The notes: a model not told the origin generated them from the letters alone. A stretch of DNA of 64,000 nt from an uncultured virus (IMG/VR IMGVR_UViG_3300044568_006268) (IMGVR_UViG_3300044568_006268:62001-126000); one strand, 5' to 3'; shown: positions 1 to 39,886, counted from the stretch's first letter. Program-made: numbers and translations.

Positions 1-269
1 TCACGGAATTCCTCATCTTTTACGTTTCTCCAAAGATCTGGTGTAACTCCGATAAGTTCACCAGCTAATCCTCTCTTTTCCCACATTGCTTGCATTTTAG
101 CAAGTCCAGCATGTCTCCATGAAGAACTCATTACAATCTTAGCTCCAGTTTCATCTACAATTCGTTTTAGATTGTCCATGAAATGTTGATGGAATATTTG
201 ACCAAACTCATCGTGACCTTGTCCTATCACGTTAAGCACTCCGTCGATATCAAGAAATATTACTTTCAT
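1..269 (-). CDS. HAD-family phosphatase (Swiss-army-knife RNA-repair HAD type), runs off the window edge
   Basis: Manual translation from ATG at 269: MKVIFLDIDGVLN (DxDGV motif), later IVMSSSW; ATGA overlap with the upstream ORF. Confidence 0.75.
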   Translation of the reverse strand, partial: MKVIFLDIDGVLNVIGQGHDEFGQIFHQHFMDNLKRIVDETGAKIVMSSSWRHAGLAKMQAMWEKRGLAGELIGVTPDLWRNVKDEEFR

Positions 270-535
270 AACTTAAAGTATTTGCCTACTTTATCTAGCA
301 TTACCATATCTCGATTATCTTTAAAGGGCAGATCATCAATATCTTCGTATAAGTTTTGAACAAATACGTCTGCTTTATTTTTTGCAATGTAATTATTAAG
401 TTCCTTACGTTTTAAAGCAATTACAATTTCTTTAAGTTCGTCGACAGATAAGCCATCCAAATCACCAGATCCATCACTATAAACTTTGATTTCTCGAGCA
501 AGTGTAATAATAAAATTTGGTGATGATTTAACCAT
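266..535 (-). CDS. hypothetical protein
   Basis: 89 aa ORF, coupled to the next gene. Confidence 0.6.
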   Translation of the reverse strand: MVKSSPNFIITLAREIKVYSDGSGDLDGLSVDELKEIVIALKRKELNNYIAKNKADVFVQNLYEDIDDLPFKDNRDMVMLDKVGKYFKL

Positions 536-703
536 TTGATTTGTTCATTACGATTCCTAATTTATTCATATCAGCAAGATTTCCTTTAACATACTTTTTA
601 TTCCATTCTCCGTATGATAGGTTATAATTAATTTCCACCCAAAGATTAAAACCGCCAAACCATCTGCGAGTCCAAAAGTATTTTCCTGTTAGTCTTTTTT
701 CGT

Positions 704-1000
704 TCATATTAATTGGCCGTTTTCAATTTCTTCGGATCTCTTCAATAAACTAACTTCCTTTCTAATTTCACGTCTCCACCATTCCTTTGTAAGCTTAGGA
801 TTATGAATGTCCTTATAAATAGTAAATGCTACTTTAGGTTTTGCAATTTCTATTTCTTCACCCCATAAAATCCATTTCTTACGTTTAGTAATTTCCATAC
901 CATCGTAAAACTCGGTATATTCATAACTGTCGCATTCATTAGCTTCGCATTGAACGGCATATTGAAATTTTCTACCGTCGATTTCTATTTCTTTTAACAT
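704..1000 (-). CDS. hypothetical protein
   Basis: 98 aa ORF, TAATG overlap. Confidence 0.65.
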   Translation of the reverse strand: MLKEIEIDGRKFQYAVQCEANECDSYEYTEFYDGMEITKRKKWILWGEEIEIAKPKVAFTIYKDIHNPKLTKEWWRREIRKEVSLLKRSEEIENGQLI

Positions 1001-1191
1001 TATTCATTAGATATTAAGGCACCTAGCCAAGTTAATTCAAGTCCAACAACAAGTATTCTTCCACCGATAGAGTCAAATAACCACCAATGCATAGGATTAA
1101 AGTCCATAGCAACGAAAGAACCTACTACATAACATGATATATGCAATAGAATATAAAGCGCGAGTTTAAATAGATTTCTCTTCATTATCAA
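1000..1191 (-). CDS. small membrane protein
   Basis: Two hydrophobic segments. Confidence 0.55.
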   Translation of the reverse strand: MIMKRNLFKLALYILLHISCYVVGSFVAMDFNPMHWWLFDSIGGRILVVGLELTWLGALISNE

Positions 1192-1411
1192 GTATTTGAT
1201 TTTGGGTAGTATTAACTGATGCCGGAAATAACATTCGAGTAAGTAACATCATTAAGAACATATCGTTATACGATACGAAAGGTCCATCAAAAATTCTTGG
1301 TACAGTAAGATTCCAAAGAATCATGGTTGGAAATGCAAATACGGCAATTACAATAGCAGCAAGAATAAAATACTGAAAAGTTGCACTTATTCCGAGTAAG
1401 ATTGTCTTCAT
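1166..1411 (-). CDS. small membrane protein
   Basis: Hydrophobic 81 aa ORF downstream of a promoter box. Confidence 0.6.
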   Translation of the reverse strand: MKTILLGISATFQYFILAAIVIAVFAFPTMILWNLTVPRIFDGPFVSYNDMFLMMLLTRMLFPASVNTTQNQILDNEEKSI

Positions 1412-1508
1412 AATAAATAGTTTATTGTTATATGTTTGAAAGAGTAAATATAATCAACATTATCTAAAAATGAAAACTTTAGAGCATTTAGTTATTAACA
1501 AATACAAC

Positions 1509-1535
1509 AAAAGCTCAATCTTACGATTAAGCTTT
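1509..1535 (-). terminator. intrinsic terminator ending the His/Ser/Arg/Gln/Thr/Leu tRNA block
   Basis: AAAGCTTAATC-loop-GATTGAGCTTTTG on the minus strand. Confidence 0.6.
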
Positions 1536-1592
1536 ATCGAAGGTATATTAGGCCATACCAATAACCAGGACCTTTTCCCTAGGGAAATGTCG

Positions 1593-1675
1593 TGACCAAA
1601 GAGGGACTCGAACCCTCACGCTCAAAGAGCACCAGCTTCTTAGACTGGCGTGTCTACCAATTCCACCACTCGGCC
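1593..1675 (-). tRNA. tRNA-Leu(AAG), A34 anticodon
   Basis: Stem CCAGT/GCTGG, loop CT-AAG-AA, long variable arm, GGTTCGAGTCC T-arm. Confidence 0.85.
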
Positions 1676-1803
1676 GTAATGAGCAATCCTATGGAATTAC
1701 TGCAGTTTATCCAAAGGTCGTATATAGCTTGCAGACTAAGATTCTGCTGGATTTTCACCTTCATAAAGCTGGATATCAACGACCCTTATCGCGATTCTCA
1801 TTG

Positions 1804-1877
1804 TACCCGAGATGGGACTCGAACCCACACTGTACAGGGTTTAAGTCTGATGCCTCTTCCAATTGGGCTACCCGGGC
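1804..1877 (-). tRNA. tRNA-Leu(TAA), short variable arm
   Basis: Cloverleaf, loop CT-TAA-AC, imperfect anticodon stem. Confidence 0.8.
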
Positions 1878-2044
1878 AAATTAAAGAAGTAAGAAAATGA
1901 ACTCCTTAACAGCTGAACGTTCAATAACTTTAAGAATCATTTTGCTTGTATCTCTAGGATTTGCAACTCCTATAAATTCACAAAATGCTTTTTGTTTATT
2001 CATTATTGTTCATTTCAATTTTGTTATTGCATTATTAGGAATAA

Positions 2045-2115
2045 CGATACTATAGGACTCGAACCTATACCTTCCAGCTCGCTCGCCGGAATTCTACCAA
2101 ATTAAACTAAATACC
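2045..2115 (-). ncRNA. tRNA-like RNA with non-canonical anticodon loop
   Basis: D-arm and T-arm present; TTCCGGC-GAGCGA-GCTGGAA replaces the 7-nt loop. Confidence 0.6.
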
Positions 2116-2153
2116 AACCTTTTTATCTCAATAACAAAAGATGTCCTTCTTTG

Positions 2154-2226
2154 TACCTAAGGAGGGATTCGAACCCACACTGTCATGCTCCTAAGGCATG
2201 TGCCTCTTCCGTTGGGCTACTTAGGC
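2154..2226 (-). tRNA. tRNA-Leu(TAG)
   Basis: CATGC-CTTAGGA-GCATG. Confidence 0.9.
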
Positions 2227-2434
2227 AAATTGGTAAGTGATGGCCTACTTGTTACCATCTGTCTCTGTTTAGTTGCAACCACTAATCCTGAATGTAGAGA
2301 ACTTACCTTTTGTTTTATGTTAGCTAATAAACATTGTTTCTAATGTTATTAACATCATCTTTTTAATTTTTGTACATTATAATATACATTAAGCCACAAT
2401 ATGACGTGTTTTGTATATTATAGTGTACATTTTG

Positions 2435-2507
2435 AGCTGACAATCAGGATCGAACTGATGACCTCTTCGATACCAACGAAGTGTTCTTCCAACTGAACTA
2501 TGTCTGC
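2435..2507 (-). tRNA. tRNA-Thr(GGT)
   Basis: CTTCG-TTGGTAT-CGAAG. Confidence 0.9.
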
Positions 2508-2513
2508 ATATTA

Positions 2514-2612
2514 CAGGGTTGTTAATTACCTCTTTCGAGGATTTCGGAGTTGAACCGATAGACAAAATTTCAAGTTTCGTGTTTAACCAATAGTTGTTTG
2601 CTGAAACAACCC
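2514..2612 (-). ncRNA. structured RNA: GGGTTGTT-TCAGCAA...AACAACCCTG helix enclosing a tRNA core
   Basis: 8-bp closing helix; internal D-like TGGTTAAAC, CGAAA-CTTGAAA-TTTTG arm, TCGG-TTCAACT-CCGA T-arm. Confidence 0.55.
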
Positions 2613-2617
2613 TTTTG

Positions 2618-2691
2618 AGCTGACAGTCAGGATCGAACTGACTCTGTTCCGGGTTACAAATCCGGTGCACCACCATTCATGCGTTGCCAGC
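2618..2691 (-). tRNA. tRNA-Thr(TGT)
   Basis: CCGGA-TTTGTAA-CCCGG. Confidence 0.85.
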
Positions 2692-2701
2692 ATATGTTTC
2701 G

Positions 2702-2772
2702 TTGGGATACTAGGTTTCGAACCTAGGCGGACTGGCTCAAAACCAGTAATGCTACCGTTACATCATATCCCA
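2702..2772 (-). tRNA. tRNA-Gln(TTG)
   Basis: ACTGG-TTTTGAG-CCAGT. Confidence 0.85.
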
Positions 2773-2778
2773 ATGTAG

Positions 2779-2849
2779 TTATCCGAGGTGGATTCGAACC
2801 ACCAATGACTGCACCAAAAACAGTAGTGTTACCGTTACACTATCGGACA
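2779..2849 (-). tRNA. tRNA-Gln(TTG)
   Basis: ACTGT-TTTTGGT-GCAGT. Confidence 0.9.
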
Positions 2850-2850
2850 G

Positions 2851-2924
2851 TGACCATAATAGGATTCGAACCTATAACCGCTGGTTTAGAAAACCAGTGC
2901 TCTATCCAATTGAGCTATATGGCC
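2851..2924 (-). tRNA. tRNA-Arg(TCT)
   Basis: CTGGT-TTTCTAA-ACCAG. Confidence 0.9.
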
Positions 2925-2995
2925 AATTAAGTTCTCCAACCCTGGAACTTATACATATCATCATTAAGCGGTCACATAGAATGTGAGATATGTTG

Positions 2996-3081
2996 AAGAG
3001 AAGATGGGACTCGAACCCACAAACCGAATTAACGGTTAACGGATTAGCAATCCGCTGCAGTACCATTATGCTTACTTCTCT
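2996..3081 (-). tRNA. tRNA-Ser(GCT)
   Basis: GCGGA-TTGCTAA-TCCGT, long variable arm. Confidence 0.9.
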
Positions 3082-3189
3082 ATAAAAAGTTAAAGGCAGA
3101 ATTCCAAATCTGCATTTTTATTCTAAAACGAGAATAACGTGAGTTTTATCGATACGTCTATCGAGGCAATTATCACTACTTTAACTTAA

Positions 3190-3279
3190 TGGAGGAGAGA
3201 GTGGGATTCGAACCCACGGAACGCTTTCACGCTCAATAGTTTTCAAGACTATCCTAATCAACCTCTCTAGCACCTCTCC
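3190..3279 (-). tRNA. tRNA-Ser(TGA), encoded CCA
   Basis: ATAGT-CTTGAAA-ACTAT, long variable arm. Confidence 0.9.
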
Positions 3280-3285
3280 ATTATT

Positions 3286-3363
3286 TGGGGTGGAAGACGG
3301 GACTCGAACCCGCGATCTCTAGAACCACAATCTAGCGCTTTAACCAACTAAGCTACAACCACC
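3286..3363 (-). tRNA. tRNA-His(GTG), encoded CCA
   Basis: CTAGA-TTGTGGT-TCTAG, G-1. Confidence 0.9.
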
Positions 3364-3374
3364 ATGTATAAAAC

Positions 3375-3409
3375 AAAAAAGCTCGATTCATTTGATAGAA
3401 CCGAGCTTT
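3375..3409 (-). terminator. attenuator terminator C
   Basis: AAAGCTCGGTTC-loop-GAATCGAGCTTTTTTG between leader C and tRNA-His. Confidence 0.85.
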
Positions 3410-3443
3410 GCAATTTAGTATTTATATTTTCACATAAGAACCA

Positions 3444-3518
3444 TCACACTTCGGTACTGTTTTCAGATCTTGTTAGATGCTGAAGCGACGTTAACGATAA
3501 TGTACTTGAAGTTCTCAT
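3444..3518 (-). CDS. leader peptide C, MRTSSTLSLTSLQHLTRSENSTEV
   Basis: Manual translation; codons 2-18 are only R/T/S/L/Q/H, the amino acids of the downstream tRNAs. Confidence 0.85.
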   Translation of the reverse strand: MRTSSTLSLTSLQHLTRSENSTEV

Positions 3519-3550
3519 TGTTTGTAATTTATTATTTTTTATATATACTG

Positions 3551-3578
3551 TTATATGTCTAAAATTGCTGAGAGTTTC
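3551..3578 (-). promoter_or_regulatory. GAAACT-N15-CATATAA promoter, block C
   Basis: Same bipartite motif and spacing at 6140, 9470, 44908 and 56118. Confidence 0.7.
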
Positions 3579-3602
3579 AAAAAACTTTCAATTTATTTTC
3601 TA

Positions 3603-3701
3603 GTGAAGACAATTGGGATCGAACCAATGGCACGCCTATGTTCCTTATCGATCATACCAATAAGTACTGAAGGTTGCTCTACCAACTGAGCTATATCTTC
3701 A
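3603..3701 (-). ncRNA. tRNA-like RNA with expanded anticodon arm
   Basis: Acceptor, D (TAGCTCAGTTGGTAGAGC) and T arms intact; extra CTTATTGGT/ATCGATAAG hairpin in place of the anticodon loop. Confidence 0.7.
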
Positions 3702-3705
3702 TTTG

Positions 3706-3776
3706 TAGCGGATTAAGGACTCGAACCTCGCCATTGGGTTATGAGCCCGATATGCTACCAATTACACTAAACCGCA
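3706..3776 (-). tRNA. tRNA-Met(CAT), initiator-like
   Basis: GGG-CTCATAA-CCC. Confidence 0.8.
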
Positions 3777-3778
3777 AG

Positions 3779-3875
3779 ATGACCTTAAGGATTCGAACCT
3801 TTAACTTGTTTCCTCTTTTAGTTTTGCAAACCTACTCAATTCTACCGTGCCCAATACACTATTGCCAATCGTCAT
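3779..3875 (-). ncRNA. degenerate/expanded tRNA-like RNA (possible GCA loop)
   Basis: AAGGTTCGAATCCTT T-arm, TGAC/GTCA ends, TTGCAAA loop; irregular D region. Confidence 0.4.
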
Positions 3876-3917
3876 TTTCGAACATGACAGCCTTAAGTTA
3901 ATTACTCTTAAGATTTG

Positions 3918-3989
3918 TAGTCCCACCGGGAATCGAACCCGACTTTTCAGGATGAAAACCTGATGACCTAACCGATAGTCGATAGGACC
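3918..3989 (-). tRNA. tRNA-Glu(TTC)
   Basis: TCAGG-TTTTCAT-CCTGA. Confidence 0.9.
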
Positions 3990-4172
3990 AATTAAGTTAT
4001 ATCAAATTCTCCCGCAGAGATACCGACCCATTGCTGAGCCAGAGAGGACTTGAACCTCTGATTCTCAATAACTAATTTAAAAGAATTAAAGAGTAGAGCT
4101 CTTCAACGATTTCGGCATTTCAGCTGGATCTTTATGCCAACTTCCTAATCCTTAGTCCGTTTAATTCTTGTA

Positions 4173-4247
4173 GTATTATGTACGGGACTCGAACCCGTGT
4201 TATCAACGTGAAAGGCTGACGTCCTAGACCAACTAGACGAACATAAC
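4173..4247 (-). tRNA. tRNA-Glu(TTC)
   Basis: TCAGC-CTTTCAC-GTTGA. Confidence 0.9.
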
Positions 4248-4251
4248 ATTT

Positions 4252-4464
4252 TTAAGCTTCTTCAGAGACAAGTCCTAAAACTTCTTCTCTGTAAATTTTA
4301 TTCAATTCACTTACTTCAATATCGATATTCGTTTGTGGATATCGGTGAAGTAAAATCTTAACTAATCTGATTCGTTTCTCAGCCAAATCTTGATTAAAGT
4401 CCATTTCAATCATTGCATCACTTAAATGAGATTGAATTGCGATTGATAATTTGATAGTTTCCAT
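4252..4464 (-). CDS. hypothetical protein
   Basis: 70 aa ORF behind a promoter box at 4488-4546. Confidence 0.65.
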   Translation of the reverse strand: METIKLSIAIQSHLSDAMIEMDFNQDLAEKRIRLVKILLHRYPQTNIDIEVSELNKIYREEVLGLVSEEA

Positions 4465-4558
4465 AATGTGATTGTTTAATTTTAATAAGTAAAACTAATC
4501 AATTTAATTGACATATGGAAATTATTTTTCAAAAAGTTATTAACAATTTTAAAATAAA

Positions 4559-4732
4559 AAGTTTGTCACCGGCACAGATTGGTGAATACCCAAGTACAAC
4601 CGAATGTACCCGATACCTTACTAACAAAATGAACGGATCTGTGTTTCCTGTATGCGGCAAGTGACCTCCTTCCTTGCTTGTGTTTCCGTATCGATGTGTG
4701 CGGCAACATACCATTTTGAGTTCAACAAACTT
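4559..4732 (-). ncRNA. candidate structured ncRNA
   Basis: Closing helix AAGTTTGTT/GACAAACTT; internal repeat TTGCCGCA...GGAAACACA twice; directly 3' of tRNA-Met. Confidence 0.45.
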
Positions 4733-4736
4733 CTTG

Positions 4737-4809
4737 TAGCGGGAGCAGGACTCGAACCTGCGACCTTTGGGTTATGAGCCCACTGAGCTACCAACTGCTC
4801 TATCCCGCA
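4737..4809 (-). tRNA. tRNA-fMet(CAT)
   Basis: GGG-CTCATAA-CCC, unpaired 1:72. Confidence 0.9.
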
Positions 4810-4835
4810 ATATACCTTTTAAGTAGAACCATCAA

Positions 4836-5027
4836 CTATATTTCTGTTGATGATTCTAATTGTCTTAATTTTAAACCTTCTTCAATTGTTTGAATGATGT
4901 CCTCAATTATTTGAGCTCGCGTAACATCAAAGTTACCATTCATTCCATTCAAATCTTTTGCATCAATTGCAATAGATCCTACTGACTTACCGTCTTTCTG
5001 TAATTCAATTACTAATGTATCAAACAT
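4836..5027 (-). CDS. hypothetical protein
   Basis: 63 aa ORF. Confidence 0.6.
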   Translation of the reverse strand: MFDTLVIELQKDGKSVGSIAIDAKDLNGMNGNFDVTRAQIIEDIIQTIEEGLKLRQLESSTEI

Positions 5028-5092
5028 AATATAGCTTTTTATTTAATTGTTTTATGCAATTTGAAATAAATTGTTTCTCTTCTTATTAACAT

Positions 5093-5551
5093 CTATCTAC
5101 AGATTCTATCAGCTACATATGAAGCCGAGCATGCATCTGGTTTACATCTAGCGTTATAACCTAATGATTCTACATAACCTAAAGCAGAACGCAGAATTGA
5201 ATTAGATTGATACTTAGGGTCTGGATTAAAATCCAAATCAATAAATGCAGGTTTTTCAATATCATTAGCTTCAAGCCATTGAGCTAATTCAACTGAATCT
5301 TCTACCTCTTTCCAAAGTCTAGTAAATCTATCTAAGATTCTAGGAATTGATTTACGAGAGTAGATAACGTGACCTCCTCGATTACCGTAATGTAAAACAA
5401 TAACCATTGCGTAAATTGTATTTCTTCCAATATTTTGCGAATCTGAACCGATATACATTTTGATGTCTTTACCAGTTGCGAGTTTGTCCTTTAAATAAGG
5501 AATTAAGTCAATTACTTGACCGTTTGTTAACGATTGAAATTTCCGGTCCAT
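5093..5551 (-). CDS. RNase H-like YkuK (DUF458) family protein
   Basis: YIGSDSQ ... EVEDS ... IDLD ... KPDA.SASYVAD pattern. Confidence 0.8.
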   Translation of the reverse strand: MDRKFQSLTNGQVIDLIPYLKDKLATGKDIKMYIGSDSQNIGRNTIYAMVIVLHYGNRGGHVIYSRKSIPRILDRFTRLWKEVEDSVELAQWLEANDIEKPAFIDLDFNPDPKYQSNSILRSALGYVESLGYNARCKPDACSASYVADRICR

Positions 5552-5571
5552 GATTATTAAATTTATGTTAG

Positions 5572-5642
5572 AGGCGAGTATAGGATTCGAACCTATGTAA
5601 CTGATTTTGCAGACCAGCGCCTAACCGCTCGGCCAACTCGCC
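5572..5642 (-). tRNA. tRNA-Cys(GCA)
   Basis: CTGGT-CTGCAAA-ATCAG. Confidence 0.9.
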
Positions 5643-5647
5643 ATTTG

Positions 5648-5719
5648 TGACTCTAGAGAGACTCGAACTCCCATCTCCTGATCCGTAGTCAAGTGTTCTA
5701 TCCATTGAACTATAGAGCC
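5648..5719 (-). tRNA. tRNA-Arg(ACG)
   Basis: CTTGA-CTACGGA-TCAGG. Confidence 0.9.
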
Positions 5720-5728
5720 ATTATTTTG

Positions 5729-5801
5729 TCGGGAAGACAGGACTCGAACCTGCGGCCTCATGCTCCCAAAGCACGCGATCTACCAACTGATCTACTTCCC
5801 G
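5729..5801 (-). tRNA. tRNA-Pro(TGG)
   Basis: CGTGC-TTTGGGA-GCATG. Confidence 0.9.
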
Positions 5802-5848
5802 TGGCAGAGAGGCTTTTGAAGTGCCCTGCTAGTTCATCTTTTAATTTG

Positions 5849-5922
5849 TCGAATAGACAGGAATCGAACCTGCTAACTGATACGTCCAAGGTACCCGTGC
5901 TTAAAACCTTAGTCACTACTCG
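5849..5922 (-). tRNA. tRNA-Pro(TGG), divergent
   Basis: GGTAC-CTTGGAC-GTATC. Confidence 0.75.
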
Positions 5923-5931
5923 TTTAAAAAC

Positions 5932-5967
5932 AAAAAAGCCTGAATCGGTTGAATGATTCAGGCTTTT
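5932..5967 (-). terminator. attenuator terminator B
   Basis: AAAAGCCTGAATC-loop-GATTCAGGCTTTTTTG between leader B and tRNA-Pro. Confidence 0.85.
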
Positions 5968-5988
5968 ATATGATGATGTTACTTTATA

Positions 5989-6084
5989 TCATTCAAAAAC
6001 CTGCATACCATTCTCACATGCCTCAGGACGAGGGCATTCTACTGTTAACTGCGATGTTGTTAGTATGTGTGAAAGTATTAACAT
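5989..6084 (-). CDS. leader peptide B, MLILSHILTTSQLTVECPRPEACENGMQVFE
   Basis: Manual translation; ECPRPEACENGM matches the downstream Pro, Arg(ACG), Cys, Met and Glu tRNAs. Confidence 0.8.
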   Translation of the reverse strand: MLILSHILTTSQLTVECPRPEACENGMQVFE

Positions 6085-6139
6085 TTTAATTTTTATTAGC
6101 AAAGACTCTTTATCTTTGTTTAGTTCTTTTATATATCTT

Positions 6140-6167
6140 TTATATGTTCCGTTATTGCGGAAGTTTC
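6140..6167 (-). promoter_or_regulatory. GAAACT-N15-CATATAA promoter, block B
   Basis: Repeated bipartite motif. Confidence 0.7.
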
Positions 6168-6328
6168 AAAATTATTTTATTCTTTTCTATTTGTGCTTTA
6201 ATCTTAGCAATCTTTTCTGGACTAGGATTTCTATCTATCGTATACGAAACACCCATCTTGTCCATGTAATCGTAAAGAAGTTGCATATCTTCATTAGTAG
6301 TTTTAGTTGTTTTCATAATAACTATTTG

Positions 6329-6402
6329 AGCGGATATTCGGATTCGAACCGAAACTTCAGACTTGGAAGGCCCACGTGCTAGCCGTTAAACACCATACCC
6401 GC
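6329..6402 (-). tRNA. tRNA-Gly(TCC)
   Basis: loop CT-TCC-AA. Confidence 0.88.
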
Positions 6403-6412
6403 ATTTTGTTTG

Positions 6413-6485
6413 AGCAATAAATCAGATTCGAACTGACGACCTCTACCTTGGCAAGGTAATGCTCTACCAACTGAGCTATTATTGC
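6413..6485 (-). tRNA. tRNA-Gly(GCC)
   Basis: TTACC-TTGCCAA-GGTAG. Confidence 0.9.
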
Positions 6486-6552
6486 ATTTGAAGGACTTGC
6501 ACCTTCTGGACATGGTTTGTTTCGCCTAAGTCGCCATGTCAACAGACCCGAG

Positions 6553-6624
6553 AGGGCAGAGTGAGATTCGAACTCACGACCAGTTGATTAACAGTCAACT
6601 GCTCTACCGCTGAGCTATCCACCC
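6553..6624 (-). tRNA. tRNA-Asn(GTT)
   Basis: GTTGA-CTGTTAA-TCAAC. Confidence 0.88.
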
Positions 6625-6630
6625 TTATTG

Positions 6631-6741
6631 CAGGAATGTAAGGAATCGAACCTTAGCATCTTCCGAGACAGGGAGTAATTTATGCAGAATACAATCTTCG
6701 CAGATTGAGTTTTAAGCGTGCTACCATTACACCACATTCCT
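6631..6741 (-). ncRNA. tRNA-Asp(GTC)-like RNA with a 40-nt insertion (6674-6713) in the anticodon stem
   Basis: Removing the insert gives CTTCC-CTGTCTC-GGAAG; G73 discriminator. Confidence 0.65.
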
Positions 6742-6749
6742 GTATTTTG

Positions 6750-6866
6750 TGGGCTCATATGGGCTCGAACCATAATCTCTTCCTAATGACATCCTACCAT
6801 ACTAAAAAGGAATCGAACCTTAGACTCATTATCGAGAAAGCGCTTTGCCAATTAAGCTAATCGCCC
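6750..6866 (-). ncRNA. tRNA-like RNA with a second, permuted T/D elbow in place of the anticodon loop
   Basis: Outer cloverleaf arms; inner TAATGA[AAGGTTCGATTCCTT...TAGTATGGTAGGATG]TCATTA. Confidence 0.65.
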
Positions 6867-6872
6867 ATGTAG

Positions 6873-7004
6873 TGAAGAATCCTAGACTCGAACTAGGAAT
6901 GTCAATTAAGACGCCGGTTTTACATCCTTTAAATTGCTGAATAAACACTTTGCACAGTGTTTGCCTTTTTGGACCGGAGCGTTTACCAATTCCGCCAATT
7001 CTTC
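6873..7004 (-). ncRNA. tRNA-Tyr(GTA)-like RNA with a 47-nt insertion (6925-6971) in the anticodon loop
   Basis: Removing the insert gives CCGGT-CTGTAAA-ACCGG; G1:C72, A73, long variable arm. Confidence 0.7.
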
Positions 7005-7011
7005 ATTATTG

Positions 7012-7083
7012 TTCTCCCGCTGGGAGTCGAACCCAGCCTCATAGATTAAAAGTCTATTGCCCACACCAGTCTGCTACGAGAGA
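7012..7083 (-). tRNA. tRNA-Lys(TTT), divergent
   Basis: ATAGA-CTTTTAA-TCTAT. Confidence 0.8.
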
Positions 7084-7169
7084 TTGTAAAGTTTTCTATT
7101 GCCAACCTCTCAACAGTGTAGAGTATTGACCTATCTATGTTTTCGCTTCATGTTCATTATATTATTTAG

Positions 7170-7243
7170 TGGCCAAGCCTGGACTCGAACCAGGGACCTT
7201 CGCATTATGAGTGCGCCGCTCTAACCAACTGAGCTACATGGCC
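7170..7243 (-). tRNA. tRNA(CAT), Ile2 or elongator Met
   Basis: CGCA-CTCATAA-TGCG. Confidence 0.85.
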
Positions 7244-7359
7244 AAAAATGTAGGGTTATCCGGTACCTACACTGATTAATGACAATCAGACCATCGTTCA
7301 CCACCTGTAAGAGCCTAACGATAGATACTGTACTTGCTTACACTCAAGTATCCGCTGGG

Positions 7360-7433
7360 TAGCGAGGACCGGGATCGAACCGGCGACCTTTGGTTTATGA
7401 ATCCAATGTTACTACCAACTGAACTACCTCGCC
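7360..7433 (-). tRNA. tRNA-Met(CAT), elongator
   Basis: loop TT-CAT-AA. Confidence 0.85.
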
Positions 7434-7472
7434 AAATTGTAAGTTTTGAATGGACTTACAACCATTGATAGA

Positions 7473-7703
7473 TTATTGGTGATGAGGAATATACTTTCCG
7501 TTCTTAACTCTAACTGCCAGTTTGGTCACGTTAAAATTCCAACAATCAAATGTACTTAATGCAGATCTTTGTTTTGCAAGACTAATGGCTTGCTTTTCTG
7601 CTTTTTCTCGACCTTCTTCCGTTGTTTCGACGAAAAAAGTGGGAGCCTGAACACCAGTCTTACTGGTAGGAACTACTCTCCAAATTCTCAAATTAGTAAT
7701 CAT
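7473..7703 (-). CDS. hypothetical protein
   Basis: 76 aa ORF. Confidence 0.6.
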   Translation of the reverse strand: MITNLRIWRVVPTSKTGVQAPTFFVETTEEGREKAEKQAISLAKQRSALSTFDCWNFNVTKLAVRVKNGKYIPHHQ

Positions 7704-7783
7704 AAGTTTTAGCTAAGCTAGACCTATGAGGAATTGTACGATTTTGTTGACATTTGATTTATATTTTTTTATTATATGTTCGA

Positions 7784-8230
7784 TTAAGCCAGAGATTCAA
7801 TAACCTCTTTTACTAATTTTGTATCGGCAAGACCTGGAAATTTCTTAACGAAAGCACCCATAGTCATACCTATTAATTTTTGTTTGTTTAATTCTAAAAC
7901 AGAACCGAGTAAAACATTAACTTCAGTTTCAATTTCAGCTCTAGTCATTTGCTTTGGCAAGTACTTTTCAATAACACCTAATTCATTAGCTTCAGATTCC
8001 ACTAAATCGAATCGACCAGCTTTTGTAAATTCTTCAATAGATTGTCTACGTTGTTTGATTGTAGAAATTACTGCATTTAGAACTAACTCATCAGTAAGTG
8101 GACCAGCATGCTTTGCCTTTTCAGCATCTTGGATTTTTGCCTTTAATCCACTTAATGCATTCTTCGCAATCGCGTTTTTCTCTTTGAATGCTACTATATA
8201 GTCAGCATTGATTGTTTCTCTTAAATTCAT
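7784..8230 (-). CDS. GatB/YqeY domain protein
   Basis: KQRRQSIEEF..AGR.DL...E..EL..IEKYLPKQM signature. Confidence 0.9.
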   Translation of the reverse strand: MNLRETINADYIVAFKEKNAIAKNALSGLKAKIQDAEKAKHAGPLTDELVLNAVISTIKQRRQSIEEFTKAGRFDLVESEANELGVIEKYLPKQMTRAEIETEVNVLLGSVLELNKQKLIGMTMGAFVKKFPGLADTKLVKEVIESLA

Positions 8231-8246
8231 CTTTACTAATTTTTAG

Positions 8247-8327
8247 TGGGCAACAGTGGACTCGAACCACTCCCGTGAGGACCAGATTTACAGTCTGGCT
8301 GCCGTATCCGAACGACTTTTGCGGCCC
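8247..8327 (-). tRNA. tRNA-Tyr(GTA)
   Basis: CCAGA-CTGTAAA-TCTGG. Confidence 0.85.
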
Positions 8328-8336
8328 ATTATATTG

Positions 8337-8410
8337 TGACTCCTCTGGGACTCGAACCCAGGACTCCCTCATTAAAAGTGAGGTGCTCTAGCCGACTGAG
8401 CTAAGAAGTC
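8337..8410 (-). tRNA. tRNA-Lys(TTT)
   Basis: CCTCA-CTTTTAA-TGAGG. Confidence 0.9.
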
Positions 8411-8420
8411 ATTGTAATAG

Positions 8421-8494
8421 CAGTCCTAACGGAATTCGAATCCGCAATCTCTTCCGTGACAGGGAAGCGTCATACGCCAATATGCTGTAGGACT
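8421..8494 (-). tRNA. tRNA-Asp(GTC)
   Basis: CTTCC-CTGTCAC-GGAAG. Confidence 0.85.
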
Positions 8495-8581
8495 ATATAA
8501 AAATTATTTAGTTTAAGCTCCTTTAAACCATGTAATTTCAGGGAGCTATTTGAGCTTATGCATGGAACTAAATAATAATTG

Positions 8582-8655
8582 CCGAGATGACGGGACTCGA
8601 ACCCGTGACCTTCGCCGTGACAGGGCGACATTGTAACCAACTCTACTACACCTCG
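8582..8655 (-). tRNA. tRNA-Asp(GTC)
   Basis: TCGCC-CTGTCAC-GGCGA. Confidence 0.9.
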
Positions 8656-8710
8656 ATTTCTAATTTCACGCTCACACTATGCAGTTCTATAAATTAGTAA
8701 CAGTCTCATC

Positions 8711-8788
8711 TGGGCTCTCCTGACTGGATTCGAACCAGTAACCCTCACCTTAACAGGGTGTCGCTCTAACCGTTGGAGCTACAGGAGA
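8711..8788 (-). tRNA. tRNA-Asn(GTT)
   Basis: CACC-CTGTTAA-GGTG. Confidence 0.9.
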
Positions 8789-8873
8789 ATATTTGATGTT
8801 TTAATTATAAGACAAATATAAACAATGTCATTGACATATGAAAATATTTAATCAAATAGTTATTAACAATTTG

Positions 8874-8945
8874 TGGAGCTACCGGGATTCGAACCCGGAA
8901 TAACAGAGTGCAAGTCTATCGTGATGCCAATTTCACTATAGCCCC
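8874..8945 (-). tRNA. tRNA-Ala(TGC)
   Basis: loop CT-TGC-AC, G3:U70. Confidence 0.9.
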
Positions 8946-8955
8946 ATTAAATTTG

Positions 8956-9030
8956 TAGGAGATGACGGAATCGAACCGACGACCTTTTGCGTGTAAAACA
9001 AACGCTCTAAACCAACTGAGCTAATCTCCT
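8956..9030 (-). tRNA. tRNA-Val(TAC)
   Basis: TTTGT-TTTACAC-GCAAA. Confidence 0.9.
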
Positions 9031-9036
9031 AAATTG

Positions 9037-9110
9037 TAGGTAATATGAGACTCGAACTCATAACCTCCTCGGTATCAGCGAGGTGCTCTAACCAATTGAG
9101 CTAACTACCT
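9037..9110 (-). tRNA. tRNA-Ile(GAT)
   Basis: CCTCG-CTGATAC-CGAGG. Confidence 0.9.
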
Positions 9111-9117
9111 GTGGCAG

Positions 9118-9188
9118 CACGAATGGAAGGATTCGAACCTTCATCGACGGTTTTGGAGACCGGCATGCTACCATTGCACCACACTCGT
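9118..9188 (-). tRNA. tRNA-Trp(CCA)
   Basis: CGGT-CTCCAAA-ACCG. Confidence 0.9.
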
Positions 9189-9195
9189 ATTTTAG

Positions 9196-9268
9196 TGGTA
9201 AGGGACGGGATCGAACCGTCATCATCGGATTTTCAGTCCGCTGCATAGACCAACTTTGCTACCTCACC
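9196..9268 (-). tRNA. tRNA-Phe(GAA)
   Basis: CGGA-CTGAAAA-TCCG. Confidence 0.9.
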
Positions 9269-9274
9269 AAAAAC

Positions 9275-9308
9275 AAAAAACCTCTGAATTTTTGAAGATT
9301 CAGAGGTT
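9275..9308 (-). terminator. attenuator terminator A
   Basis: AACCTCTGAAT-loop-ATTCAGAGGTTTTTTG between leader A and tRNA-Phe. Confidence 0.85.
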
Positions 9309-9335
9309 AAAGTATATTGTATTAAAATATCGATA

Positions 9336-9434
9336 CTACATCCGAATCACATTGCTATCCACATAATCATTCCCGGCAAACTTAATCGCCCAGTCAAAAT
9401 TCATGTTAATATTTATGTTAGTAGTAGGTATCAT
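9336..9434 (-). CDS. leader peptide A, MIPTTNININMNFDWAIKFAGNDYVDSNVIRM
   Basis: Manual translation; codons 6-26 use only, and all of, the 11 amino acids of the downstream tRNA block. Confidence 0.85.
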   Translation of the reverse strand: MIPTTNININMNFDWAIKFAGNDYVDSNVIRM

Positions 9435-9469
9435 TTTATTGATGTTTTAATATTGTTTTATATATACTG

Positions 9470-9497
9470 TTATATGTTCTAAATTTCAAAAAGTTTC
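9470..9497 (-). promoter_or_regulatory. GAAACT-N15-CATATAA promoter, block A
   Basis: Repeated bipartite motif; ACATATAACAGTATATA identical to block C. Confidence 0.7.
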
Positions 9498-9526
9498 AAC
9501 TTATTTTTATATTATTTTAATCTTAG

Positions 9527-10090
9527 TTAGTCCCACCAAGAATCATATTCTTTAGCGAAGATTTCCATTGCTAAAGCAAAGTCTTTACTTCTATTCAAAT
9601 GAGCAATTTTCATACCCATTATGTATTCTTTGTTCTTTTTTCTCAGCTGAGCAGGTGTATATCGCTCATCATTCCTATCCATCAATCTGTGGCAATCTGG
9701 ACGATCTTCGCAAGGAATAGTATAGTAATCTGACTTACCCCATTTAGCGTCATGCTTTTCTCTATATGGCTCGTCGTAGTTATCTTCATGCACTTTCGTT
9801 AATAACTCTAAACATTCAGTCATCGTTCGAATTTGCTTTTCGCGATTCTCATCGACTGTATGGCCATGGTCTTTAACGTATTTGATATGAGCTTTCAACT
9901 TAAAAAGAATTGGTTCCATAATGTAATGGTTATCCCAATCTCTATCTCGCCATACAATAGGCATCCATCGAATTATATTCTTAATTCCTCTCACAAAATC
10001 CTTGGAAGGAATCTTGACGTATTCCTTCCAATAAAATTTTGCATTGTCTACCGCTTCTTCAACGTAGAACTTAATTCGTTCGTTTATCAT
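9527..10090 (-). CDS. hypothetical phage protein
   Basis: 187 aa ORF, WRDRDWD and C-terminal WWD. Confidence 0.75.
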   Translation of the reverse strand: MINERIKFYVEEAVDNAKFYWKEYVKIPSKDFVRGIKNIIRWMPIVWRDRDWDNHYIMEPILFKLKAHIKYVKDHGHTVDENREKQIRTMTECLELLTKVHEDNYDEPYREKHDAKWGKSDYYTIPCEDRPDCHRLMDRNDERYTPAQLRKKNKEYIMGMKIAHLNRSKDFALAMEIFAKEYDSWWD

Positions 10091-10104
10091 ATTGATGTTA
10101 TTGA

Positions 10105-11421
10105 TTAACCTTCAGCTTCTTCGGTATCAATTACTCCAGAATCTTTTACGATTCCTTCAAGTACTTTGAATTCGAAAGACTTGAATTTGAATGTTTTGTT
10201 TACCAAACCACCTTCAATTCTTACACAAACTCCTTCTTTGATATGTCTAGTATCTAAGATAGATGGACCAGTTCCGAATGTTTCGACGGTGTTGCTGAAA
10301 TATTCTCGCAAATCTCTATCATCGAATTTATGAGTGATTGCTTCTAATTCGTTTAAGGTTATCGTAGCAACATGTGGTACAGTTTTTACACCTAATTCAT
10401 TACAACGTTTTACAACATCATTCCAAGCATAATCGATAGATTGACCATCTTCATTAGCAAATGTCATACGGTAAACATAAACCTCAGATTGAGTAGGTTC
10501 ACAACCATAAGAATAAGCCATAGACTTACCGTATTGTTTCGTAAACTCTTTATCACCCATTTTGGTTGTATCAACAGATGGCATAATTGCAGCTCCTGTA
10601 GATTCGTAACCTACAATTTCAAAATAAACGGTTTCACCTTTTCTTAAGTTACCTTTGAATAAGTTCATTGCTTTATCTCGGATGGTTGGGTCATGGAATT
10701 GATTTGCGGATTTTGATTCTCCTAAAACAACTCTACGAGTACCATTCAAATAAGCCCATTCTTTGTCGTTGATAGCTAATCCAAATTTAGTAACAAGTTT
10801 TTCTAACCAACCTAATTCTCTAGTCATTTGAACGTGACCAATACGACCTGAAGTACCGTGAAGTTTTTCAGTAATAATGATGTGTTGACCCTTTTCAAAT
10901 TCGTGGATACTCTTACCAAAGTGTCCGGTATCAAAATGTTCTTTGAACATTACAGAAGATCTAGAAACTCGGGTTTTCTTACCTTGATTTTCTCTAGCAA
11001 TTTTAGCCGTATTTGGATTTACATATTTGTTACAGATAGGTACACCTTTCCATTCGTCAAATTCAAATCCTTCTACATCTAAACCAGTTACCATAATGAA
11101 TCCAAAGTAATGTAATGGAACCCAGAAACCATCAGAGATTTCACCTCTAAATTTTTGAGCTCTTACTCTTCGGTTTGCATCGAACATTCCACCTTTCTCA
11201 TCTTTTCTAGCATTTAACTCGGCATCACGATAAAGGTTGTTTGCTTTACAGAACTCATCGGATAACTGACCATCAGATGGAAAGTAAACTCCTAAATGTC
11301 CTTCTAAAGAATCTAAACCAATTACTACTTGATTACCGTGACAAGTTGCTAATTGAACTTTGTCTGCGTTAGGATGTGGTCTCACGTTTGTCAACCTAGT
11401 GACGATTGCATTGTATGCCAT
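10105..11421 (-). CDS. RNA ligase, DRB0094/Rnl2-like, with N-terminal tRNA-binding OB fold
   Basis: HPNADK N-domain; TEKLHGTS motif I; EGVCVR motif IV; FKFKS motif V. Confidence 0.85.
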   Translation of the reverse strand: MAYNAIVTRLTNVRPHPNADKVQLATCHGNQVVIGLDSLEGHLGVYFPSDGQLSDEFCKANNLYRDAELNARKDEKGGMFDANRRVRAQKFRGEISDGFWVPLHYFGFIMVTGLDVEGFEFDEWKGVPICNKYVNPNTAKIARENQGKKTRVSRSSVMFKEHFDTGHFGKSIHEFEKGQHIIITEKLHGTSGRIGHVQMTRELGWLEKLVTKFGLAINDKEWAYLNGTRRVVLGESKSANQFHDPTIRDKAMNLFKGNLRKGETVYFEIVGYESTGAAIMPSVDTTKMGDKEFTKQYGKSMAYSYGCEPTQSEVYVYRMTFANEDGQSIDYAWNDVVKRCNELGVKTVPHVATITLNELEAITHKFDDRDLREYFSNTVETFGTGPSILDTRHIKEGVCVRIEGGLVNKTFKFKSFEFKVLEGIVKDSGVIDTEEAEG

Positions 11422-37960: not shown

Positions 37961-39886
37961 TTATTTTAATTTGATTTTCATTTGTGTGCCTATCTCTGGC
38001 AGTTTATTACATTTAATGGTAAAGCCATGTTCACTTAAAATTGCAATACATATATTAAGGCCTAATCCGGTTCCTGATTCTGCTTGTCCTTCTTTCCTTA
38101 CATACGGTTTAGATAGATAATCGAAATCTGCTTGACTTAATCCTCTACCGTTATCTTCAATAAAGAGAGTATCTTCAACTCGATAAATTTTAACAAATTT
38201 ACTATTACTGTCATTGTATTTCAATCCATTACGAATAAGATTATCAATTGATGTACAAAATAAGGCTTCATTAACATCCAATTCTCCTAAGTCTTCTAAA
38301 ATTACTTGAGGTCGATATGCAGTTGCAGAAAGATAATCCTCTAATATAAGCTTAAGATTGCAATTAACTCGATCAAGTACAACATCCTTCTTTACCAAAT
38401 TTGTAAATTCATAAACTCCTTTATAAACTTTTTGAGTGTGTCGCAGACCTTCTTTAATCATCTTAAGAGGTGCTTCAATCTTCAACTCTTTTATTTGTTC
38501 TTCCGTGAGTCTACGTTCTAACGAAGATAAACCTCGAGGCATATATGTGTTAATTCCACTATGCATATCATGTCGAAGAATTTTAGCAGCATGTTCAAGA
38601 TAAGTGTTTTTCTTTTCAATCTCTATCTGCTGATTATAGCTTTGAGTAACATCAGTAGCAATTTTCATTATTCGATAAGGTTTACCATCAATACCAATAA
38701 CCGGATTATAAGTTGCTTGTAGATAAATTAAATTTCCATCTTTTTTCTTTCTGATAATTTCTCCACTAAAGAATTTTCCTGTTCGTAGAGTTTCCCAAAA
38801 TTTTTGATATTCATTTGATTCGACAAATTCATCCTCTACGAATATGCTATGATGTTTACCTACGATTTCTTCGAATTTATCGTATCCCATAGTATTTAAG
38901 AAAAGTGAATTAGCAAATATTATATTACCTCCTAAGTCGAATTCAATAACCGCATTAGATTGATTAATTGCAGTCATTCTATTATGTATTTCGTTCTCTT
39001 TGTTTTTTAATTGAGTAACATCTTGTCGGATAGACATAAATCCTAATATGGTTCCGTCATCGTCGAAATTGCACTTTATAAAAGTATCTACATAATACAA
39101 TGAGCCATTTTTTGCTCGGTTTGTACAGATAGCATTCCAAATTTTCTTTTCTTTGACTACTGTCCTATACATATCAGACCAAAATTCCTTAGGATGTTCA
39201 CCTGAATTTACAACATTATGGTCAAGGCCTATCACTTCATCTATCGTATATCCAGAAATATCACAAAACTTTTGATTTACATATGTTATCTTTCCTTTAG
39301 AATCAGCCATTGAAATGATTGCTGATGTATCGAGAAATTTTTCTAGTTCTATCATTTGACTCGATAACTTTTTAGATTCTTTAACAGAATAAGCAAATGA
39401 ATACAGAGACGAAAGTATTTGAGCAAAATGAATTTCCTCAGTTTTCCATATTCTAGGGGATAGACTTTCAATACAAATAACCCCAATCAACGATCCACTA
39501 TACCAAATTGGTACATCTAACATCGATTTAACACCCAGAGGTTTTAGATAACCTTCAAGAAAACACGATGTGGCAGGATGATTTTCTGCATCATTAGCAA
39601 CAATGATTGGATTTTCTTCCAGTGATAAAAAATATGATTCGAAATCTTTTTTATGTAAAATAATATCTTGATAAAAGGCATCTTCTAATTTTATATAAAG
39701 TTGTTGAAGGATGATAGAATCTCGGTCCTCGTTAAACAACCATATAGATGTTCGATCAGCTGAAACACTATCTACAACTTCCTTAACCACCAATTTAGCT
39801 CCTTCCATAATATTACCTTTATAAAATAATTCATTTGAAGATTGATGTACTAATACCTCAGTTAAAATTTCTGAGTATGATTTCAT
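37961..39886 (-). CDS. GAF-PAS-PAS sensor histidine kinase
   Basis: GAF (LDVPI..G..IGVICIE), two PAS/PAC, H-box LRHDM, N-box NLIRNGLKY, DNGRG, GTGLGL. Confidence 0.93.
   Translation of the reverse strand: MKSYSEILTEVLVHQSSNELFYKGNIMEGAKLVVKEVVDSVSADRTSIWLFNEDRDSIILQQLYIKLEDAFYQDIILHKKDFESYFLSLEENPIIVANDAENHPATSCFLEGYLKPLGVKSMLDVPIWYSGSLIGVICIESLSPRIWKTEEIHFAQILSSLYSFAYSVKESKKLSSQMIELEKFLDTSAIISMADSKGKITYVNQKFCDISGYTIDEVIGLDHNVVNSGEHPKEFWSDMYRTVVKEKKIWNAICTNRAKNGSLYYVDTFIKCNFDDDGTILGFMSIRQDVTQLKNKENEIHNRMTAINQSNAVIEFDLGGNIIFANSLFLNTMGYDKFEEIVGKHHSIFVEDEFVESNEYQKFWETLRTGKFFSGEIIRKKKDGNLIYLQATYNPVIGIDGKPYRIMKIATDVTQSYNQQIEIEKKNTYLEHAAKILRHDMHSGINTYMPRGLSSLERRLTEEQIKELKIEAPLKMIKEGLRHTQKVYKGVYEFTNLVKKDVVLDRVNCNLKLILEDYLSATAYRPQVILEDLGELDVNEALFCTSIDNLIRNGLKYNDSNSKFVKIYRVEDTLFIEDNGRGLSQADFDYLSKPYVRKEGQAESGTGLGLNICIAILSEHGFTIKCNKLPEIGTQMKIKLK

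Follow-up and report, generated by a model that had tools for sequence, protein, structure and literature searches.

Putative leader-peptide attenuators in front of the tRNA gene blocks of an uncultured lake phage

The multivalent leader-peptide attenuators of enterobacteria include thrL, which senses Thr and Ile, and the ilvL leader of ilvGMEDA, which senses Ile, Val, and Leu. Components of the decoding apparatus can be controlled in a similar manner: the pheM leader of pheST (encoding phenylalanyl-tRNA synthetase) forms an attenuator that responds to the cognate tRNA. In the T-box, the choice between terminator and antiterminator is also set by the tRNA supply, with the tRNA being bound directly and no open reading frame (ORF) involved. 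To our knowledge, the described leader-peptide attenuators all regulate enzymes of amino acid biosynthesis or aminoacyl-tRNA synthetases. The tRNA genes themselves are usually regarded as constitutive or growth-rate controlled.

The phage locus analyzed here departs from that class feature, as the genes apparently regulated by its cassette C are 12 tRNA genes (counted with ARAGORN and Rfam). Cassette C is likely to be a ribosome-mediated (leader-peptide) transcription attenuator that gates this tRNA block, and one of three such attenuators in the phage. The sequence features that point to this reading are the architecture of the cassette, the match between leader codons and tRNA anticodons, the statistics of this match, and the covariation of leaders and blocks in related phages.

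The source of the DNA is an uncultured lake phage. The window, i.e., the whole stretch of 64,000 nucleotides that was analyzed and to which the coordinates refer unless another locus is named, lies inside a single contig of 129,487 bp with 33.6% G+C. The tRNA cluster of the phage takes up the first 9.3 kb of the window, all of it on the minus strand. It contains 35 tRNA genes recognized by ARAGORN, an extra Thr-TGT tRNA at 2691..2617 (detected by Rfam and by ARAGORN at a relaxed threshold), and three further tRNA-like elements with insertions (Rfam and relaxed ARAGORN). These tRNAs cover all 20 amino acids and are divided among blocks A, B, and C. The minus strand of the cluster carries four strong terminator-like hairpins, three of which sit 10 to 16 nt ahead of tRNA genes. 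In the order of the minus strand, the blocks and the end of the cluster are as follows.

6328..9268, minus strand: tRNA block A (Phe, Trp, Ile, Val, Ala, Asn, two Asp, Lys, Tyr, two Met-CAT, Lys, Asn, and two Gly), with an embedded YqeY-like gene
3603..5922, minus strand: tRNA block B (two Pro, Arg-ACG, Cys, Met-CAT, two Glu, Met-CAT, and one tRNA-like element), with an embedded RNaseH_like gene at 5551..5093
1592..3362, minus strand: tRNA block C (His-GTG, Ser-TGA, Ser-GCT, Arg-TCT, two Gln-TTG, Thr-TGT, Thr-GGT, Leu-TAG, an odd tRNA, Leu-TAA, and Leu-AAG)
1510..1535, minus strand: predicted hairpin of the cluster-ending terminator

Several elements of the cluster are unusual in their own right. 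The tRNA at 2044..2116 (minus strand) has an eight-base anticodon loop; ARAGORN reports it as “???” with the anticodon agcg, and Rfam scores it as a tRNA at 36.3 bits. A longer form of it is typed as Ile-AAT by relaxed ARAGORN, and its counterpart in the related locus L131 is typed as Ala-TGC. This tRNA could be frameshift-suppressor-like. The tRNA-like elements at 3603..3700, 6630..6741, and 6872..7004 (minus strand) carry insertions of about 8 to 47 nt within the anticodon arm or close to it; Rfam scores the first two at 44.4 and 45.8 bits, respectively, and the ARAGORN calls need introns to be allowed. Given the uncertain anticodons of these elements, the number of tRNA species counted here for blocks A and B may be too low. 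The YqeY-like gene inside block A spans 7784..8230. The RNaseH_like gene (5093..5551, minus strand; 152 aa, PF04308, DUF458) is found beside tRNA genes in many of the lake-phage contigs examined (L001-L007 and L131-L210, for which it served as the search anchor), an arrangement suggesting that it takes part in processing or repairing tRNAs.

The genes of the genome include those for collagen-like tail fibers, NAD-dependent DNA ligase, RNA ligase, NAPRTase, YqeY, and the RNaseH_like protein, and scans against PHROGs and Pfam gave few matches. A 641-aa ORF at 37961..39886 (minus strand) combines GAF, two PAS, and HATPase_c domains, a sensor histidine kinase-like architecture that is unusual in a phage. 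A megablast search of positions 1500..9500 against phage records for close relatives among deposited phages returned only tRNA-sized matches of ~50 nt, and a tblastn search with the RNaseH_like protein returned identities of no more than 35%, which leaves no cultured relative to work with. One IMG/VR contig, L001, has an RNaseH_like gene that is 100% identical and the same tRNA order. It comprises 294,034 bases, compared to 129 kb here, which could reflect concatemerization, an assembly error, or a true genome of larger size.

Cassette C lies immediately upstream of tRNA block C and consists of the following elements.

3537..3580, minus strand: promoter-like motif with a putative promoter activity (TTGAAA, spacer, CATATAA, then ATATATAAAA)
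3444..3518, minus strand: leader ORF C, predicted to be translated, 24 codons plus TGA, peptide MRTSSTLSLTSLQHLTRSENSTEV
3465..3515, minus strand: sensor stretch, codons 2 to 18 of the leader, encoding only R, T, S, L, Q, and H, with all 17 codons readable by block C tRNAs
3447..3456, minus strand: candidate antiterminator strand UACCGAAGUG in the last codons of the ORF, forming the best duplex with the 5' arm of the terminator
3367..3409, minus strand: predicted intrinsic terminator, a hairpin of 12 pairs (3409..3378) followed by a T tract

The promoter-like motif occurs in only three copies in the 129,487-bp genome, each of them upstream of a leader ORF. In all three places, the short ORF gives way to a strong terminator and then, after 10 to 16 nt, to a tRNA gene. 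In cassette C, the stop codon of the leader is 34 nt ahead of the terminator stem, and tRNA-His starts at 3362, 16 nt past the terminator hairpin.

The codons of leader C (3518..3444) read ATG AGA ACT TCA AGT ACA TTA TCG TTA ACG TCG CTT CAG CAT CTA ACA AGA TCT GAA AAC AGT ACC GAA GTG TGA. A preliminary description of this locus had claimed that codons 2 to 18 are restricted to six amino acids, R, T, S, L, Q, and H, and that they mirror the tRNAs downstream, and the ORF at 3518..3444 bears this out in all 17 positions. The particulars hold as well: the Leu codons TTA, TTA, CTT, and CTA face Leu-TAA, Leu-AAG, and Leu-TAG in block C, both Arg codons are AGA and the block carries Arg-TCT, and the Ser codons include AGT along with TCN, for which the block provides Ser-GCT and Ser-TGA. 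The ACA and ACG codons, left unexplained in that description, are served by the Thr-TGT tRNA at 2691..2617. When standard wobble is applied, block C can read 19 of the 23 codons that follow the ATG, compared to an expectation of 6.5 based on the codon usage in 85 long phage ORFs (binomial P = 9e-8). An unbroken run of 17 readable codons appeared in none of 200,000 simulated ORFs, and leader C is the only one with such a run among the 279 ATG-initiated ORFs of 20 to 45 aa in the window. Each of the 10 typed anticodons of block C has at least one cognate codon in the leader.

The start region of leader C is A-rich and lacks a Shine-Dalgarno sequence, as is the case for the phage's own gene starts. 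Among the 85 long phage ORFs, only 6 have a Shine-Dalgarno-like tetramer upstream, compared to a background of 13%, and the upstream regions are 50 to 60% A, which hints at a host with Shine-Dalgarno-independent initiation. The start codons assigned to the leaders, including the ATG of leader C, are predictions made without Shine-Dalgarno support.

The two sister cassettes of the same phage precede blocks A and B.

9279..9499, minus strand: sister cassette A, with a promoter-like motif from 9499, leader ORF 9434..9336 (MIPTTNININMNFDWAIKFAGNDYVDSNVIRM), and terminator 9308..9279
5934..6169, minus strand: sister cassette B, with a promoter-like motif from 6169, leader ORF 6084..5989 (MLILSHILTTSQLTVECPRPEACENGMQVFE), and terminator 5967..5934

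Block A can decode 25 of the 31 codons of leader A (P = 0.007), and 11 of the 12 block A anticodons have a cognate codon there. For leader B, with the ATG at 6084 as its start, block B can decode 12 of 30 codons (P = 0.002), and all 5 anticodons are sampled. Leader B is a weak case: at the amino acid level, only 10 of its 30 residues belong to the block B set (P = 0.28). Its ECPRPEACE stretch faces the Pro, Arg-ACG, Cys, and Glu tRNAs of block B. The first 14 codons of leader B (6084..6043, minus strand; LILSHILTTSQLT plus V) encode block C amino acids, together with ATA, and resemble leader C. This first half could be a remnant of a duplication or a sensor looking ahead to the next block. The division of the tRNAs into three blocks provides an internal control, in which every leader favors its own block (25/31 for A, 12/30 for B, and 19/23 for C). 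The Arg codons follow the same division, with two AGA codons in leader C (Arg-TCT) and CGT in leader B (Arg-ACG).

Transcripts that run from leader into tRNA may be represented in metatranscriptome data. One contig (9205-9428) spans leader A, its terminator, and tRNA-Phe, and another (5848-5995) runs from the end of leader B through the terminator to tRNA-Pro; both could stem from DNA carry-over and neither defines RNA ends. In the small shares of two metatranscriptome runs that were covered (contigs only), there was no contig on leader C.

Related loci were collected by using the RNaseH_like gene as an anchor, which gave 7 viral loci, by a pattern of terminator plus tRNA-Phe, which gave 5 loci (2 of them on new contigs), and by a metagenome scan, from which 80 of 423 confirmed relatives were kept, for a total of 89 loci. 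A terminator followed by a tRNA within 45 nt was found in 28 cases, distributed over 22 of the 89 loci, and in 27 of these an ORF of at least 12 codons ends no more than 90 nt upstream of the terminator. The exception is L147, with a terminator and no ORF; among the 27, the ORF of L190 is simply the end of the RNaseH_like gene. Cassettes of the C type were also found, by hand, in L139 and L138. The cassettes are related and are not independent samples, so the composition statistics overstate independence: in 12 representative cassettes, 332 of 429 leader residues belong to the amino acid set of the adjoining block, compared to a permutation mean of 269 (standard deviation, 15), and 2 of 100,000 permutations reach this value. 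In the same 12 cassettes, which leave out near-identical copies, B-type cassettes truncated by contig ends, and two non-leaders, the leader contains 137 of the 142 block amino acids; 56 occur in the leader only and 42 in neither (Fisher P = 2e-14). All 27 leader-like cassettes, a set that takes in duplicates and truncated cassettes, give 646 of 969 residues in the block set, a value reached in none of 50,000 permutations, and 263 of 271 block amino acids present in the leader.

Individual families illustrate how closely the leaders list the tRNAs of their blocks. In the L003-type cassettes, the block comprises tRNAs for F, K, M, W, Q, D, E, A, T, G, V, P, I, N, and Y, and the leader contains all 15 of these amino acids and, beyond them, only S and R. 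These leaders start with GTG, and T, Q, E, and P have been gained together with the respective tRNAs. The 52-codon leader of L162 and L163 (MYHKNMTTFNRHTANNYPCFSGKGITMQPSFVWERNIADTNKMDYVRQIFID) contains 19 amino acids and no Leu, and the tRNAs of its block are for the same 19; the two Leu tRNAs of these phages are located upstream of this leader and have a plain promoter in front. In L174, Leu tRNAs are part of the block and five Leu residues are part of the leader. The leader of L204 has only E, E, and D outside the block set. The match is retained in the homologous C-type leaders of L139 and L138, as the preliminary description would predict. For L139, nine tRNAs of the block precede the end of the contig; they can read 24 of the 28 codons of the leader (MRTSLHISQQSQTTSIQHLILRSLHLDLR), and all 9 anticodons are sampled, whereas block B of the same phage can read only 3 of the 28. 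This leader contains ATA codons and its block contains a CAT tRNA, which could be the Ile2 species. Divergent homologs preserve the reading frame, length class, and position of the leader.

There are also counterexamples. In L126, the L003-type leader has been kept while the block has lost its Asp, Ala, Gly, Val, and Asn tRNAs, leaving 23 of 42 residues in the block set, and in L002:4343 leader A has been kept over a truncated block (10 of 31 in the set). The leaders thus do not follow recent tRNA loss. Positions 6930..7030 of L127 (reverse strand) show a promoter-like sequence, a terminator, and a degenerate tRNA-Phe-like sequence with no leader ORF in between; this is apparently a decayed or differently working cassette. 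In seven control loci (L176, L184, L196, L197, L198, L202, and L208), the terminators ahead of tRNAs were seen by eye to follow ordinary ORFs of 47 to 73 aa, some with signal peptide-like N termini, and none of these is a short leader.

Some candidates were discarded. Terminators located 46 to 110 nt ahead of tRNAs turned out to be ordinary gene terminators, with the exception of L139. A scan with the AT-rich promoter motif returned 116 unrelated stretches, and loci L008-L087 were set aside as unspecific. The 187-aa ORF upstream of leader A was considered as a synteny anchor and rejected, as it shares 23 to 24% identity with L003 and L004 ORFs of equal length and is not homologous to them. Separately, ARAGORN predicts stop-reading tRNAs in L003 (4615..4692), L004 (9980..10052), and L137 (TTA for UAA and TCA, i.e., SeC, for UGA), which are possible suppressor tRNAs.

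The match had been placed at the level of isoacceptors in the preliminary description. As a description this is accurate; selection at that level is no more than suggestive, with P of about 0.02 for leader C. When the peptide of leader C was kept fixed and its codons were resampled among synonyms, all 17 codons were readable in 20% of the trials, and 17 readable codons together with all 10 anticodons sampled were obtained in 2.3%. Across 12 cassettes, the signal hinges on the wobble rules: under strict wobble, 268 of 303 codons are readable compared to 251.2 expected (94 of 200,000 resamplings), whereas liberal wobble yields 287 of 303 compared to 286.1 expected, with no isoacceptor signal.

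The full-length leader C RNA has a predicted folding energy of -39.4 kcal/mol (z = -4.59), and its predicted fold consists of a hairpin closing the ORF and the terminator. In this untranslated fold, the antiterminator strand is sequestered in the ORF-closing hairpin. An alternative pairing, ACCGA with UCGGU, between codons near the end of the ORF and the terminator had been proposed in the preliminary description. It does appear in predicted folds, and it is weak in leader C: the duplex amounts to -7.0 kcal/mol and is matched by 36% of shuffled upstream segments (compared to 23% for leader A and 3% for leader B). The same description offered covariation of this pairing across homologs as a check. 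The helix sequence itself is not conserved; L139 and L138 pair at the same place, with the last codons CCUGAGG facing CUUAGGG or CUCAGGG of a different terminator (-10.7 and -12.2 kcal/mol), so that the pairing has been kept even though both strands have changed. In all 14 cassettes compared, the best duplex of the terminator 5' arm falls between positions -28 and +3 of the stop codon, i.e., in the last 9 codons or the stop, and in 9 of the 14 no more than 5% of shuffled partners equal it. The distance from the end of the ORF to the terminator stem is 18 to 34 nt in 14 of 14 cassettes. Where the leader ends carry residues outside the block set (ENSTEV in C and the RGSS region in L003), the antiterminator strand occupies the same position.

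The effect of a ribosome was modeled by folding the RNA only up to the terminator 5' arm with the ribosome footprint masked. In the folds of A, B, C, and L003, the 5' arm pairs with the segment over the last codons, and this pairing is lost when the footprint is placed at the stop codon. In the predicted folds of A, B, and L003, the antiterminator also forms without a ribosome.

Under the attenuation reading, a dedicated promoter would give rise to an RNA that begins with the 24-codon leader, in which codons 2 to 18 would sample every tRNA species of the block. With fast decoding, the ribosome would reach the stop codon and cover the last codons, the 12-bp terminator would form, and RNA polymerase would halt 16 nt ahead of tRNA-His. 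If any tRNA of the block were scarce, the ribosome would stall in the sensor stretch and, as the folding suggests, leave the last codons free; these could then pair with the terminator 5' arm, letting the polymerase enter the tRNA genes. The phage would probably make the tRNAs of a block mainly when the leader codons are read slowly, and the tRNA set would repress its own synthesis in a negative feedback, block by block. The picture implied by the preliminary description, in which a leader mirroring its own tRNA block is linked to a terminator and to an alternative pairing, gains support from the sister cassettes and from the covariation in relatives.

The main rival reading also takes the leader to be translated and to control the tRNA block, and differs in assuming another read-out or the opposite sign; pyrBI-like coupling, access of Rho or RNase to untranslated RNA, and stalling that stabilizes the precursor are among the options. 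We consider it unlikely. The codon match would suit any translation-dependent sensor, and this rival could also draw on the antiterminator helices of leaders C and A, which are no better than shuffles, on the ribosome-independent antiterminators of A, B, and L003, and on the leaderless L127, with its terminator directly behind the promoter-like sequence. Coupling of the pyrBI kind is hard to reconcile with ORFs that in every one of the 14 cassettes end short of the stem, as a gap of 18 to 34 nt would leave a terminating ribosome unable to cover the hairpin as it does in pyrBI. A further point against this rival is that in 14 of 14 cassettes the 5' arm finds its best partner among the last codons, with 9 of the 14 beating shuffles, and the opposite sign would amount to a positive feedback of tRNA on tRNA synthesis, which has no obvious use. 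A further reading retains the attenuator and changes what it reports, namely, amino acid starvation (tRNA charging) instead of the amount of tRNA, which would place the tRNA genes under a general translation-stress signal. Classical attenuators do respond to charged tRNA, sequence is unable to separate tRNA charge from tRNA amount, and the L162 leader, sampling 19 amino acids, looks like a general decoding probe. However, the leaders match their own blocks and not translation in general, Leu is omitted exactly where the Leu tRNAs lie outside the regulated unit (L162 and L163), and extra uncharged tRNA would not relieve starvation, all of which makes this reading quite unlikely.

It is very improbable that there is no leader at all and that leader C is a chance ORF in an AT-rich spacer, followed by a hairpin that is an ordinary terminator or a structure for processing of the tRNA precursor. 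Short ORFs are indeed common in AT-rich DNA, and the contigs of the two metatranscriptome runs include none on leader C. Chance would nevertheless have to produce the codon match of leader C (P = 9e-8, 0 of 200,000 simulations), three matched cassettes sharing a private promoter-like motif, and the covariation in relatives (0 of 50,000 permutations), and would have to keep frame, length class, and position of the ORF conserved in divergent homologs.

If the attenuation reading is true, these cassettes would provide the first example of genes controlled by their own decoded product via the speed of translation. It would bear on the large tRNA sets of phages, i.e., on why they are carried and how they are deployed against codon mismatch or tRNA-cleaving defenses. 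The leader would then be a list of the tRNAs that belong to one regulatory unit, an idea that can be tested from sequence, and the cassettes could offer compact natural multi-codon sensors of decoding capacity for engineering. A more far-reaching and distinctly tentative proposal is that the phage exerts product feedback over its tRNA supply as a counter-defense circuit: each block would have its own probe of decoding speed that samples every isoacceptor, would be induced exactly on depletion, and the three independent sensors would together cover the 20 amino acids. Depletion might be caused by host anticodon nucleases, other tRNA-targeting defenses, phage-driven decay of host tRNAs, or the codon demand of the AT-rich phage. 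We know of no described cellular or viral equivalent of such a circuit for tRNA genes.

The cassettes are not recognized as members of known Rfam families. None of the Rfam leader families (Thr_leader, His_leader, Trp_leader, Leu_leader, and others) matched at the gathering score; the best match was that of leader B to Thr_leader (25.2 bits compared to the threshold of 55, E = 0.3), and leader C had no match. An Rfam scan of positions 1..10500 gave no T-box match at E values up to 1. Leader-peptide control of tRNA genes is not mentioned in the accessible portions of the full-text literature, which takes in little from subscription journals or the older work on phage T5 and includes parts of PMC4810235, PMC10644984, PMC3326045, PMC3082878, and PMC10221431. 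The E. coli tRNA-Phe genes pheU and pheV were considered as possible precedents with a Phe-rich leader and dismissed, as in K-12 the promoters lie directly before both genes, with no leader or terminator between.

Among described systems, the T-box resembles the phage cassettes in that the choice between terminator and antiterminator is made by tRNA supply, and differs from them in that the phage cassettes have a leader ORF. In leaders of the pyrBI type the ORF enters the hairpin, whereas the phage ORFs stop 18 to 34 nt before the stem. The pheM leader is a leader-peptide attenuator controlling a component of the decoding apparatus; it senses a single amino acid and has a protein as its output. 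The closest likeness is to thrL and ilvL, with which the phage cassettes would share the succession of promoter and short translated leader rich in the sensed codons and the use of one leader for several amino acids. A choice between the terminator and an antiterminator masked by a ribosome at the end of the ORF, as in thrL and ilvL, is predicted for the phage cassettes, with a candidate helix that is weak in leader C. The sequences are unrelated. The enterobacterial leaders contain runs of the sensed codons, whereas in the phage leaders each of the 6 to 19 sampled amino acids occurs just once or a few times. The output of thrL and ilvL consists of enzymes, whereas that of the phage cassettes would be tRNA genes, so that the molecule sensed would be the product itself.
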